A stretch of DNA of 64,000 nucleotides from an uncultured Chlamydiae bacterium (GTDB taxonomy: Bacteria; Chlamydiota; Chlamydiia; Chlamydiales; Parachlamydiaceae). Below the pieces are notes generated by a model, which was not told where the DNA came from, searched no databases, and saw nothing but the letters and a program-made list of their open reading frames with translations. A program made the position numbers and the translations under genes. The stretch lies in contig CAVWGN010000001.1 of the NCBI GenBank assembly GCA_963754655.1, positions 928,001 through 992,000 of the forward strand. Direction: 5' to 3'. Below are positions 13,308 to 18,152 of the stretch, piece by piece (the stretch's first letter is position 1; every line of letters begins with the position of its first letter).

Positions 13308-13380
13308 GGGGCAATAGCTCAGTGGTTAGAGCAGCGGACTCATAACCCGCTGGTCGTAGGTTCAAATCCTACTTGCCCCA
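13308..13380 (+). tRNA. tRNA with CAT anticodon (probably tRNA-Ile2/lysidine; elongator Met not excluded)
   Basis: GGGGCAA/TTGCCCC acceptor stem, D arm GCTC..GAGC, anticodon loop CTCATAA, GTAGG-TTCAAAT-CCTAC T arm; paired 1:72 argues against initiator. Confidence 0.93.
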
Positions 13381-13556
13381 CTTTTTATCCATCATCCATA
13401 AGCATCTGTAAGTACGATTCAGCTTGAAATAAAATCTTGTATCAAGCTAATTTTATCACTTGCGGTGCAAATTCGGTATGGAATACTTAGCATAAAATAT
13501 TTGAGTTCTCTAGCTTAATCCATCTCAATTCAGTTCTCTCAGAAAAAAAGTTTTCC

Positions 13557-13585
13557 TTGTATGTTAACTTCAAGTGTGATAAAAT
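13557..13585 (+). promoter_or_regulatory. Putative sigma70-type promoter of the leader-brnQ unit
   Basis: TTGTAT-17 bp-TAAAAT with TG extended -10, 31 bp upstream of the leader 1 ATG. Confidence 0.6.
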
Positions 13586-13616
13586 TAAGGATCTAACAAA
13601 AGGTTTGACTTTAGCT

Positions 13617-13691
13617 ATGTTCAATAAAGCGCACATCAATATCAGTATTCAGATTATTATTAACCCCATTTTGAGGTGCGGACTTATGTGA
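13617..13691 (+). CDS. Attenuator leader peptide 1, MFNKAHINISIQIIINPILRCGLM (7 Ile in 24 aa)
   Basis: Hand translation; Ile cluster; 3' end carries GAGGTGCGG, complementary to the terminator 5' arm. Confidence 0.85.
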   Translation: MFNKAHINISIQIIINPILRCGLM

Positions 13692-13721
13692 TTGGCCTTA
13701 GCTAAACATAGGTTAAAAAAA

Positions 13722-13756
13722 GACCGCACTCTCGAAAGAGGTGTGGTCTTTTTTTT
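13722..13756 (+). terminator. Attenuator terminator 1
   Basis: GACCGCAC(T)CTC-GAAA-GAGGTGTGGTC followed by T8. Confidence 0.9.
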
Positions 13757-13820
13757 GTAGGTGAATAAGAAAATTAAAATGAAGCCTTAACTTAAAATGT
13801 AACGTAAAGAGAAAAATTAA

Positions 13821-13904
13821 ATGATCAACATGTGCATAGAGTCCATTAGTATTCGAATTATTGTGGTTATCCACGTTAAATCGAGGTGCGGACCTATGCT
13901 TTAG
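13821..13904 (+). CDS. Attenuator leader peptide 2, MINMCIESISIRIIVVIHVKSRCGPML (7 Ile + 3 Val in 27 aa)
   Basis: Hand translation; paralogous to leader 1, same GAGGTGCGGAC antiterminator strand. Confidence 0.85.
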   Translation: MINMCIESISIRIIVVIHVKSRCGPML

Positions 13905-13934
13905 GCTTTTTGCCCATAGTTTGGTTAGAGAAAA

Positions 13935-13967
13935 ACCGCACGCTCAAAAGAGGTGCGGTTTTTTTTT
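13935..13967 (+). terminator. Attenuator terminator 2
   Basis: ACCGCAC(G)CTC-AAAA-GAGGTGCGGT followed by a T run; 61 bp before the brnQ ATG. Confidence 0.9.
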
Positions 13968-14028
13968 GCTATCAAGCTGCTGTAGAAAATCTATAACAGC
14001 ACAATTAAAGGTTACAAAAAGGGATTAT

Positions 14029-15171
14029 ATGAAAAATAAATGGCTTGTTGTTAGTACTGGATTTGCTTTGTTTTCAATGTTTTTCGGATCAGGGAATTTA
14101 GTTTTTCCAATTACAGTTGGTCAAGAAAGCGAAGGACATTATCTTCTTGCTGCTTTAGGAATTTTATTTACGGGAGTAGTAGTTCCTTTTCTTGGAGTAT
14201 TGGGAATGATGCTCTACAAAGGAGATATTTATAGTTTTTTTAGTTGCTTTGGCAAAAGAGGGACTTTCTTGTTCTCGTTTTTGGCGCTAGCATTAATGGG
14301 TCCTTTCGGAGTTCTTGCTCGTTGCTTAACCGTGGCACATGGTGCTTTATTGCTTTTATTACCAAATGCTTCGCTACCTCTTACTAGCATTTTAATGTGT
14401 GTTGTTATTTATTTTTTGGCTGTAAATAAGAATAAGATTGTTACAACATTAGGAACAGTATTAACTCCATTTTTACTTTTAGCGATAGCTATGATTGCAT
14501 TTTTTGGTTTAAACTAGGGGAATTTACCTGAAGCAACAACCACTAGCAGCTGGAATGCTTTAAAAAATGGCTTTTTCCAAGGTTACCAAACAATGGATCT
14601 TTTAGCTGCATTTTTCTTCTCTCAATTTGTGATTAAGCATCTTCACAGCAAGCTATCACCTAATGATGGGGAGACTTCATTGCTTAAATATTTTACCAAA
14701 TCTGCTTTGATTGGTGCAGGCATTTTGTCTTCAGTGTATTTCGCTTTGGTATTACTCGGCTGGATTTACTCACCTCTTTTGACTAATACACCCCCACAGG
14801 AAATGTTGGGAATGATTGCTATTGAATCTCTCGGAACAATAGCAGCTCCATGCGTATGCTTAGCGGTCTTATTTGCCTGTTTGACGACAGCGATTGTTCT
14901 AGCTTCGTTATTTGCAGACTTTATCCGTAAGGAGGTTTCAAAGGATAAAATTGGTAATAAGCAAGCCTTATTTATCACTTTAGGGATAGGTTTTGTAGTA
15001 TCAACTTTCGATTTTGTTGGAATTGCCAAATTTTTAGGTCCAGTACTTGAAGCTGTTTATCCCGCTTTAATTGCTTTGACGTTAGTCAATATCACAAATA
15101 AATTTTTTGGTGTAAAGTCTTCACATTGGCCGTTTACATTAACATTGGCAGCCAAGCTATGCTGGCTATAA
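14029..15171 (+). pseudogene. brnQ: Branched-chain amino acid transporter BrnQ with one in-frame TAG (14515-14517)
   Basis: GFALFSMFFGSGNLVFP, GYQTMDLLAA and LFACLTTAI motifs; same frame on both sides of the stop. Confidence 0.88.
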
Positions 15172-15210
15172 ACAACTTAAGATTAAAATATGTAAACATA
15201 TAGGTAAAAA

Positions 15211-16388: not shown

Positions 16389-17597
16389 CTATAACTTATG
16401 GACAAATATACCATTCATTACTTCTTGCTTCATCGATACATTGCTAATAGACTTTTGGCCTATCCCACAAGAGGAATCTCCACAAGCGTAAATTCCCGTG
16501 GAACTCACGGTACTCAATTTTAATAAATTTTTGGCTGCATTAATGTCTCTATCGTGTTGTGTACTGCAACGTTGACAGACCCATTCCCTGATGTTCAGCG
16601 GCATTTGGATGGCTTTATGCTGACAATGAGAACAGATTTTTGAAGAAGAATAATACCTCGGCGCTCTTATTAGCTTCGAGCCATACCATTCTGTCTTATA
16701 GGCAAGCATGCGTATAAATCCGCTCCATCCTGCATCGGCGATCCCTCTACTCAACCTATTCTTTTGCTGCAAAGTTTGTACATCCAAATCTTCAACAACA
16801 ATAATTGACTTGGTTTTCGCCAATCTTGTTGATAATTTATGATGGAAATCAGTGCGTTGATTGCCGATTTTTCGATGCTGTCTGGCTAACAAAAGAGATG
16901 ATTTCTTATAATTACTAGAACCCTTTTGTTTGCGACTTTGTTTTTTATTTAACACTCTTATCTTTTTAAGCGATTTATTTAAAGGCTTTGGTGAAATAGT
17001 TTTTTCACCTTCTGAAGTTGTAACAAAAGAGGTTAGCCCGACATCAATGCCAATCGCTGGTCCTTCAACTGGCTGAGAATTTTCTATTTCACACTCTACC
17101 GTTACACTAACATACCACCGATCTGCTTGACGAGAAACTGTAGCTGAAAGAATTCTTCCTCGTACTTCTGCACACTCTTTAAGTCGAATGATACCCAAAC
17201 GAGGTAATTGAATAAATTGCTTATTAACTTTAATGGTTCCCGTTAATCGGAAATGATCGTTGATCCCCTTTCTCTTAAATTTTGGGAATCCTCCTTTCTT
17301 ACCACTCTTCTGGCGGTGGAAAAAATTCTGAAAAGCTCGATCAAGATCTCTCAAAGCCTCTTGGGGCGCACATTTTGACACCTCATACATCCAAGAAAAT
17401 TGTGACCCCTTCAAACTATTGAGTAATCGGTGCTGTTCAATAGCGTTAGTAGATATTCCATCTTTTTCATATTTTTCAATTCTTGCAGCAAGCCCCCAGT
17501 TATAAGCAAACCGAGCAGATCCTGCATGCTTGGCTAAGAGGATGCGCTGAGCGATATTCGGCTTTAATTCATATCGGTAAGCTCTTTTAATTAGCAT
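16389..17597 (-). CDS. tnpB: RNA-guided endonuclease TnpB
   Basis: AYRYELKP N-terminus; RuvC motifs [18 protein letters not shown]; CxxC..CxxC zinc finger. Confidence 0.92.
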
Positions 17598-18152
17598 TTT
17601 GCATGGTTTCCAATGCTTTTTTAGCTTTGTTCTTTGCCGATCTTCGTCCGTATAGTCTAGCACAAAAAGAAGTTAACACTTCTATCATATCTTGAACTAA
17701 ATCATCCTTTAACTCAGAACCATCTGCAACTATTAATTTTCTTCCTTGTGCAGCTAATGCTGACTCCACATATTCAGCACCAAATCTCATCAATTGATCT
17801 CGATGTTCGACTAAAATAATCCAGATCTTTGGATTGTTCAATAATTTTATTAATTTAGGACGATGGCCATTGAGGCCAGAGCCTATTTCTGTTACTGTGT
17901 GAGCCACAAGATAGCCTTTTTGATTGGCAAAAGTGACTAGCCGGCTTACTTGCCCGTTAAGATCATTTTTTGATCGGCTGAGGACACACGTGCATAGATA
18001 GCAACAGCATTTGGCTCAAGCATTTCCTCTTTGATTAGAATTGTTCCTGTTTTTGTTTGCTCGGCAGGAACAGGGAGTTGTCCTGCTTTGAACCAGCGCC
18101 AAGCAGTCCTATAGCTTATGCCTTGTTTTTTTGCCCATTTACTTAGTTTCAT
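17587..18152 (-). pseudogene. tnpA: IS607 serine-recombinase transposase, frameshifted
   Basis: MKLSKWAK..G.SY.TAWRW, YARVSS.DQK in one frame; EIGSGLN, F.ARLYG.RS in another. Confidence 0.88.

Follow-up and report, generated by a model that had tools for sequence, protein, structure and literature searches.

Predicted tandem leader-peptide attenuators upstream of brnQ in environmental chlamydiae

In enterobacteria, genes of branched-chain amino acid biosynthesis are controlled by leader-peptide attenuators, as in ilvL of the ilvGMEDA operon, ivbL of ilvBN, and leuL of leuABCD. To our knowledge, this form of control is known almost entirely as single units ahead of the biosynthetic operons of free-living bacteria. 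Here we analyzed a 64,000-nucleotide stretch of DNA from an uncultured Chlamydiae bacterium of the Parachlamydiaceae (contig CAVWGN010000001.1, positions 928,001 to 992,000; hereafter the window), in which two short isoleucine-rich open reading frames (ORFs), each followed by a predicted intrinsic terminator, stand in tandem upstream of brnQ, a gene of the branched-chain amino acid transporter family. A first-pass annotation, made from the letters alone, had proposed that they are two ribosome-mediated attenuators, the first sensing Ile and the second Ile and Val. We found that both units belong to a conserved chlamydial family, and we put at roughly 0.78 the probability that they act as ribosome-mediated attenuators in series on one leader transcript into brnQ.

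Like the enterobacterial ilv and leu leaders, each chlamydial unit has a short ORF with a run of codons for the controlling amino acid, an antiterminator and an intrinsic terminator that compete for one strand, and a stop codon at which a terminating ribosome would block the antiterminator; the same scaffold also heads ilvB and leuC in relatives. Unlike those leaders, to which they have no detectable sequence or profile similarity, the units here precede a transporter gene, and at 9 of 11 tandem loci they represent two old types in a fixed order. Outside the enterobacteria, the ilv-leu operon of Staphylococcus aureus reportedly has a leucine-rich attenuator peptide, and attenuation is said to have been proposed for trpRBA of Chlamydia trachomatis, which belongs to the same phylum as our bacterium. 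Both are likewise cases of attenuation of amino-acid genes, but they are single elements with biosynthetic targets and are unrelated in sequence to the pair described here.

Complete modules placed in series are familiar from tandem T-boxes, which combine two sensor-plus-terminator units, and from the S-adenosylmethionine and B12 riboswitches that lie in tandem ahead of Bacillus clausii metE. The metE example and a summary of the general model of leader-peptide attenuation are both given in passages of PMC3641672. As in these tandem riboswitches and T-boxes, the chlamydial leader contains two complete modules that would both have to be passed; whereas the RNA of riboswitches and T-boxes senses its ligand or tRNA directly, the sensor of the chlamydial pair would be the translating ribosome. 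Passages of the same paper also describe the Salmonella mgtCBR leader as a tandem of attenuators with two short ORFs, which sense ATP and proline and act additively and independently; mgtP, one of the two, detects charged tRNA by way of a run of codons. The two systems share two short ORFs in one leader, each affecting how the RNA folds and how far transcription proceeds into the coding region. According to those passages, however, the mgtCBR stem-loops do not resemble intrinsic terminators, and the authors (Lee & Groisman 2012) call the leader a singular example; the chlamydial pair has an intrinsic terminator in each of its two units, which are complete and homologous and would sense related amino acids. 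Our searches of the open-access full-text literature turned up no leader-peptide attenuator ahead of brnQ or in environmental chlamydiae, and mgtCBR was the one exception to the lack of tandem amino-acid attenuators there.

Structure and conservation of the units

Two leader ORFs, two terminators and brnQ behind them are all present base for base as first annotated (Table 1). The ATG-to-ATG distance of the leaders agrees with the 204-bp period that had been given, and the single promoter-like site, upstream of leader 1, obtained the top score of our hexamer scan; its -10 hexamer ends 31 nucleotides (nt) before the ATG. Leader 1 has seven Ile codons (I7, I9, I11 and I13-15 at 13635-13661, and I18 at 13668), and leader 2 has seven Ile and three Val codons, with a core run IRIIVVIHV at 13851-13877. 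Set against 7.7% Ile in long ORFs, the Ile contents of 7/24 and 7/27 give binomial P values of 0.002 and 0.004, and by Ile density the two leaders take ranks 1 and 3 among 402 short ATG ORFs of 17-40 amino acids. The units can be aligned with each other, and their identity is concentrated in GAGGTGCGGAC.TATG and in the terminator. The stop codon of leader 1 starts 7 nt past the end of the conserved strand GAGGTGCGG, and in the two units the stop starts 16-19 nt after the first base of this strand. The stem of terminator 1 consists of 11 bp with one bulged U and a GAAA loop, GACCGCAC[T]CTC GAAA GAGGTGTGGTC, and can be extended by the upstream A-tract.

Folding with ViennaRNA reproduced the competing structures. 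Both terminators formed in the full-length units, with core energies of -20.2 (unit 1) and -18.6 kcal/mol (unit 2), and of -24.3 and -26.0 kcal/mol when the A/U extension was included. The pairing of GAGGTGCGG with the terminator 5' arm CCGCAC.CTC, a feature already noticed in the first-pass annotation, is conserved across units. In unit 1 without the terminator 3' arm, this antiterminator was the minimum free energy (MFE) structure, and when a ribosome was masked at the last Ile or Val codon with the 3' arm absent, it formed with 9 of 9 pairs in both window units. When the leader of unit 2 was left untranslated, the antiterminator had 0 of 9 pairs, codons 4-8 pairing with GGACCTATGC instead. 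Among the 46 aligned units described below, the antiterminator was the MFE structure at 80% or more of its pairs in 31 when the ribosome was masked and the 3' arm absent, and the full untranslated unit folded as the terminator in 36. We make no case for a difference in 1:2 pairing specific to the two unit types defined below, because untranslated folds were mixed within both.

A terminator and promoter program scan of the window had flagged neither terminator, because of the one-base bulge in each stem, nor the 13557-13585 site, which it overlooked because the -35 hexamer agrees at just three of six positions. Both kinds of feature were then checked by the ViennaRNA folding and by a separate hexamer scan.

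Table 1. Coordinates of the leader units, brnQ and adjoining features in the window
Feature	Positions	Strand	Remarks
tRNA gene, anticodon CAT	13308..13381	+	ARAGORN; Rfam tRNA 74.9 bits; context only, outside the switch
Promoter-like site	13557..13585	+	TTGTAT (13557-13562), 17-nt spacer, TAAAAT (13580-13585); hexamer score 9
Leader ORF 1	13617..13691	+	MFNKAHINISIQIIINPILRCGLM; 24 codons and TGA (13689-13691)
Unit 1 antiterminator 5' strand (region 2)	13673..13681	+	GAGGTGCGG; complement of terminator 5' arm 13724-13733
Unit 1 inner hairpin	13682..13713	+	ACTTATGT...ACATAGGT enclosing TTGGC/GCTAA; MFE fold; between region 2 and terminator
Predicted intrinsic terminator 1	13722..13756	+	stem 13722-13748, then T8 13749-13756
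Inter-unit spacer, 64 nt	13757..13820	+	AT-rich; purine-rich AAAGAGAAAAA just before ATG 2
Leader ORF 2	13821..13904	+	MINMCIESISIRIIVVIHVKSRCGPML; 27 codons and TAG (13902-13904)
Unit 2 antiterminator 5' strand	13883..13891	+	GAGGTGCGG; stop codon starts 10 nt past its end
Unit 2 inner hairpin	13894..13919	+	CTATG...CATAG enclosing GGC/GCC; aligns with its counterpart in other type-2 units
Predicted intrinsic terminator 2	13934..13967	+	stem 13934-13960, AACCGCAC[G]CTC AAAA GAGGTGCGGTT; T9 13959-13967
brnQ	14029..15174	+	LIVCS / Branch_AA_trans family; 381 codons; in-frame TAG 14515-14517; translation and Pfam

The first-pass annotation had pointed to chlamydial brnQ upstream regions as the place to look for the same pair and for covariation, and both were found there. 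A DNA search of other genera of the family recovered related leaders, including a second tandem, ahead of their brnQ orthologues, and a protein search with an intact orthologue combined with nhmmer over 30 loci yielded many single units and four tandem arrangements. From 18 units we built a covariance model, R1, whose structure comprises the terminator and the inner hairpin, with the antiterminator left out. In the window's own genome (G000, 3.16 Mb; other G numbers denote compared chlamydial genomes), R1 found just the two window units, and its other two matches were their palindromic terminators read antisense. R1 matches were present in 22 of 73 genomes of the same family. In a sample of 151 genomes spanning the order, 15 had matches, 13 of these from at least 10 other families. 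A second, class-level sample also had matches in 15 of 151 genomes, with none in its 27 genomes of one family (f35); the seven f35 genomes listed measure 1.0-1.2 Mb.

Our alignment covers 46 units from 35 loci of the chlamydial order; a match in G134 (30.5 bits), with neither an Ile-rich ORF nor a nearby downstream ORF, was excluded as doubtful. When Rfam 15 (Thr_leader, Leu_leader and 4225 other families) was searched at a permissive E-value, all leader, riboswitch and T-box families stayed below threshold on the units. The best scores on both units were 25.9 and 21.2 bits for Thr_leader (RF00506, gathering threshold 55) and 16.1 bits for Leu_leader (RF00512, threshold 50); the likeness to these families rests mainly on the terminator and the A/U tracts, and the units are not members of them. 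Judged by sequence, the units form a conserved chlamydial RNA family of their own, uncatalogued and present in at least 11 families of environmental chlamydiae (f1 and at least 10 others).

One further genome, G012, has two weak R1 matches 2.5 kb apart (contig C2, 1,413,824-1,413,960 and 1,416,303-1,416,439). Their leader-like ORFs and terminators are near-identical and their upstream sequences similar, and only the second precedes brnQ. The upstream match is followed by another ORF and has the look of a local duplicate.

All 46 units contain an ATG ORF of 17-34 codons, with its stop 1-16 nt (mostly 7 or 10) past the antiterminator strand. Codons for Ile, Val, Leu or Met (hereafter hungry codons) made up 65, 80, 94 and 80% of the codons starting 14, 17, 20 and 23 nt upstream of this strand, 33-67% of those farther upstream, to 38 nt, and 15-22% of those at 5-11 nt from it. 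Hungry codons are thus enriched at fixed positions across the 46 units, and they stop 14 nt (or 17 nt) ahead of that strand. A ribosome footprint of 12-15 nt from the P site is given in a passage of PMC3641672. Taken together with this footprint, the codon profile implies that a ribosome stalled on the hungry codons would leave the strand free, and that a ribosome terminating at the stop would cover its GC-rich 3' part.

The alignment also showed covariation in each of the proposed helices. In the terminator, 95.0% of 622 cells pair, 8 pairs are compensatory, and none of 500 shuffles equaled this result. In the antiterminator, 94.8% of 401 cells pair, as against 35-48% in controls that were slid along the alignment, with 4 compensatory pairs and again none of 500 shuffles reaching the observed value. 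The inner hairpin, evaluated in 18 units, had 85% of cells paired and 7 compensatory pairs, which 0 of 500 shuffles equaled. In unit 1 of G030 contig C186, regions 2, 3 and 4 are altered in concert (GTGTGG / CCACAC / GTGTGG).

The stretch GAGGTGCGGACCTATG is much better conserved than the remainder of the leader. It could be read as a conserved peptide tail, RCGPM; however, GAGGGTGCG is read in a different frame in 3 of the 46 units, which makes the RCGPM tail a by-product of the RNA motif, and in the RCG frame the Arg codon is AGG without exception. These patterns support a constraint on the RNA, not on the peptide.

The codon content of the leaders follows the function of the controlled gene. 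Ahead of brnQ, the leaders are mostly Ile-rich; several genomes have Met codons among them, and in G062 and G205 Val predominates. The Met codons fit a report, in a passage of PMC11140210, that chlamydial BrnQ is the site of competition between Leu, Ile, Met, Phe and Val. In G030, which has the scaffold in tandem at two loci (L057 and L058), both leaders ahead of acetolactate synthase (TIGR00118, 715.7 bits) are rich in Ile, Leu and Val, and those ahead of leuC (TIGR00170, 625 bits) are rich in Leu. The leaders ahead of a partial acetolactate synthase match in G168 (L054; TIGR00118, 534 bits) are Ile/Val-rich. At one locus (L046, G060:C378), the tandem units precede not brnQ but a 247-amino-acid ORF (L046:1960-2703, minus strand), whose match to Mitochondrial carrier PF00153 reaches 18.6 bits, below the cut-off of 22.3; this ORF may be a eukaryote-like carrier under amino-acid control. 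Distant brnQ orthologues have unrelated leaders, which have the Ile run alone in common.

The tandem arrangement and a model of serial control

Tandem arrangements occupy 11 of the 35 loci, with seven ahead of brnQ, two ahead of ilvB, one ahead of leuC and one ahead of the mitochondrial-carrier-like ORF. In a tree of all units, one clade (type 1) comprised 9 first units and 21 single units, and the other (type 2) comprised all 11 second units, 3 single units and the 2 first units of G030. No pair from the same genome formed sisters in the tree, except inside G030. Unit 1 of the window grouped with unit 1 of G063 (support 97/80), and unit 2 was nearest the second units of G063, G057 and G205a. 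We therefore rejected a recent local duplication of the window units, since the nearest relatives of each lie in other genomes and not in its partner. Type 1 precedes type 2 in 9 of the 11 tandems, ahead of different genes, and because this order is kept the pair must be old. Loci with a single unit have mostly retained type 1. In calling the units diverged paralogues, the first-pass annotation was right and even understated the case, as they belong to two old types. Its description of the pair as Ile followed by Ile/Val holds in G000, G063 and G205a, and does not extend to the tandems of G020, G057 and G205b.

If the two units act in series, a promoter is expected ahead of the first unit and none between the two. 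We scored the 72 nt ahead of each leader for promoter-like sites and found scores of 9 or more at 27 of the 35 first or single units and at none of the 11 second units, a contrast whose test statistic overstates the case because the genomes are related. In the 27 units the site took the comparable form TTGnnn-17/18-TAnnnT and stood as far from the leader as the window site does. From the U tract to ATG 2, the 11 tandems have 8-70 nt, and 46 nt or fewer in 7 of them, which leaves little or no room for an internal promoter. In the window spacer (13757-13820), where the first-pass annotation had warned that a separate promoter would make the units independent, we found no convincing site: the best match, TTTTTT-18-TAAAAT, scored 7.5, and a TAAAAT stands at 13793-13798. 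Together, these results support one transcript passing two checkpoints in series, as far as DNA sequence can indicate.

The conservation, the codon geometry, the covariation, leader codons that track the target gene, and the 0 of 11 internal promoter-like sites all favor the arrangement first proposed, of Ile and then Ile/Val leader-peptide attenuators acting through the ribosome in series. Under this model, the leader transcript probably starts after 13585, from the 13557-13585 site, and runs into brnQ. In each unit, a ribosome would translate the short ORF as RNA polymerase advances along the leader. With ample charged tRNA-Ile (in unit 2, also tRNA-Val), the ribosome would reach the stop codon and cover GAGGTGCGG; the terminator hairpin could then form, and the transcript would end at about 13756 or 13967. 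When charged tRNA is scarce, the ribosome would stall on the Ile/Val run, the last codon of which starts 14 nt before GAGGTGCGG. The strand, left free, would pair with CCGCAC.CTC, so that no terminator forms and the polymerase reads through. A stall on I7-I15 of unit 1 would in this way let the polymerase continue into unit 2, where the decision would be repeated on the Ile/Val run, and only transcripts read through twice would reach brnQ.

By analogy with tandem riboswitches, expression would be expected to need a shortage of Ile at unit 1 plus a shortage of Ile or Val at unit 2. With two units in series, basal expression should be lower and the response to shortage of Ile (and of Ile/Val) steeper, and the behavior would be multiplicative or AND-like. 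A broader proposal is that the type-1 and type-2 pair is an old, selectively maintained, two-stage heterotypic sensor, not a redundant duplication. Such a sensor would shut expression off tightly and respond steeply, in AND-like fashion, to Ile and Val charging. The pair would have moved as a unit between uptake genes (brnQ and the mitochondrial-carrier-like ORF) and ilvB, and would have been retuned codon by codon, from Ile to Val, Leu or Met, for each target. We offer this proposal tentatively, at somewhat less than even odds.

The interrupted brnQ and other explanations

Several observations weigh against the model of serial attenuation. The Shine-Dalgarno signals ahead of the leaders are weak (in unit 1, AAGG 14-17 nt upstream of the ATG), and the Ile run of unit 1 is degraded in G063. 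In unit 1 without its terminator 3' arm, the antiterminator forms even when the leader is untranslated, and there is no 1:2 structure. The covariation of the antiterminator comes down to just 6 cells in its 4 pairs, few because the strand is so strongly conserved, and the support for the split between types 1 and 2 is 87/90, not starred. AT-rich spacers always hold -10-like hexamers, so that an internal promoter may still be present. Finally, brnQ is interrupted at codon 163 by the in-frame TAG, a position occupied by Gln or His in the 8 uninterrupted orthologues that were aligned, and its orthologues are also broken in G016 (L015; TGA at the very next codon, 164), G062 (L027; TGA at about codon 47) and G049 (L047; several frames, with frameshifts). 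In the three other genomes of the same genus, this brnQ orthologue is absent at 47% identity or more (best 39-40%), and none of the three has the RNA element by R1 search. The switch may thus control a dying gene in G000.

These breaks raise the possibility that the pair is a relic, in which the attenuators are genuine in origin but brnQ is a recent pseudogene, so that the pair lacks a current output and is being lost, as in the sister species. The independent breaks in other genomes, the loss of both gene and RNA element from the three relatives, and the two other brnQ paralogues of G000 would all fit such a history. Pfam PF05525 matches both sides of the stop, with 85.0 bits before it (residues 1-162) and 101.2 bits after it (cut-off 22.3); on TIGR00796, three brnQ orthologues from other families reach 180-194 bits, below the equivalog cut-off of 243.4. 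As evidence against a relic, the ratio of nonsynonymous to synonymous divergence (dN/dS) after the stop between G000 and G016 is 0.09 at a dS of about 1.1, which lies within the 0.055-0.10 of intact pairs, and therefore no relaxed selection is visible. The stops of G000 and G016 fall in neighboring codons of a variable loop, and an ATG about 25 codons farther on is kept in the other ten aligned orthologues (TTG in G016), a combination that could equally reflect a tolerated split. Given the TAG, the protein made may be truncated, split or produced by read-through, and the break may be recent or tolerated: a recent pseudogene, a tolerated split, or read-through. Every functional part is intact in both units, and the relic account addresses the present use of the element, not its identity. 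We consider it unlikely, although it deserves to be kept in view.

The other challenge concerns the series itself. A promoter in the spacer could drive unit 2 and brnQ independently, leaving unit 1 as a small RNA, a stand-alone leader, or a terminator of read-through from the tRNA gene, which precedes leader 1 by 236 nt and has the same orientation. The spacer is indeed AT-rich and holds its TAAAAT, and promoter prediction in AT-rich DNA is unreliable. However, it has no TTG-type -35 hexamer at the right distance, and second units as a class fall short of the score that most first or single units attain. Spacers of 8, 26, 37, 40 and 41 nt at other tandems are too short for a promoter and a 5' untranslated region, the type-1-then-type-2 order is kept ahead of different genes, and the genes upstream vary between genomes. 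Independent units are, on this evidence, distinctly improbable.

We regard as very improbable any mechanism independent of stalling, whether an RNA bound by protein or tRNA or an RCGPM arrest peptide with the Ile codons an AT-rich by-product: it would account for the strong conservation of GAGGTGCGGACCTATG, but not for hungry codons enriched at set positions and ending 14 nt before the antiterminator strand, leader codons that change with the target gene, or unrelated leaders of distant brnQ orthologues that share the Ile run alone, and it has no Rfam riboswitch or T-box match behind it. The arrest-peptide version arose from a presumed loose resemblance between RCGP and known arrest motifs; it was rejected because 3 of the 46 units read the motif in a different frame and its Arg is always AGG, as a constraint on the RNA predicts.

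Other leaders, surroundings and biological meaning

The unrelated Ile-run leaders of distant brnQ orthologues occur at L034, L035, L040 and L041 (G015, G007, G077 and G076) and at L036, L037 and L039 (G080, G081 and G082). One kind ends in ...IIIGS, sometimes with a few more residues, and has its stop in or beside a perfect palindrome (of the TGGCAGCTAGCTGCCA type); the other ends in ...SIIISIII* or ...SIIIIII*. No obvious R1-type terminator follows either kind.

The two further brnQ paralogues of G000, at 36-44% identity, each have a short upstream ORF rich in Ile/Val (L010, contig C1 at about 2,000,100-2,000,250; L011, contig C1 at about 682,100-682,220). These ORFs end in ...IRIVR* and ...VIVSVVACL*, with the stop in the loop of a GC-rich hairpin and a T-rich stretch after it, and both ORF ends and both hairpins are kept in a genome of the same genus, G002 (L068 and L069). 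The paralogue leaders represent a different switch design from the window pair.

Farther upstream of the switch, the window contains an isochorismatase-family gene and a serine carboxypeptidase S10 gene besides the tRNA(CAT) gene, whose product may be either elongator tRNA-Met or, with lysidine, an AUA-reading tRNA-Ile; an Rfam Plastid-ycf2 match on the antisense strand proved to be this tRNA read backwards. A look through sequencing runs for this stretch listed no RNA run, and two soil-metagenome runs from one study contained 5-6% of the words sampled from it. The ORF after brnQ has an ATP-grasp match below threshold, and a 424-amino-acid ORF at 16389-17663 on the minus strand is, we presume, a transposase-associated nuclease of the IS200/IS605 TnpB/OrfB type.

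We conclude that the window holds a real and conserved pair of what by all its parts appear to be classical attenuators, members of an undescribed family whose ordered two-type tandem is placed to control an importer. In G000 the best match to biosynthetic acetolactate synthase scored 177 bits, below the family cut-off of 538, which fits a dependence on import. With an importer as the target, an intracellular bacterium that depends on amino acids from outside would raise its uptake as its own tRNA charging drops. At about a third of the loci (11/35) the element is an ordered pair, and mgtCBR, the only tandem of attenuators that our literature searches found, differs from it in design. Single and paired versions, tuned to Ile, Val, Leu or Met, share one scaffold and so provide a natural experiment on doubling, gain and threshold. 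If the two-stage module is borne out, ribosome-mediated attenuators would prove to be modular and composable in the manner of tandem riboswitches, and obligate intracellular bacteria, with their few transcription factors, would gain a general reader of the amino-acid supply of the host.

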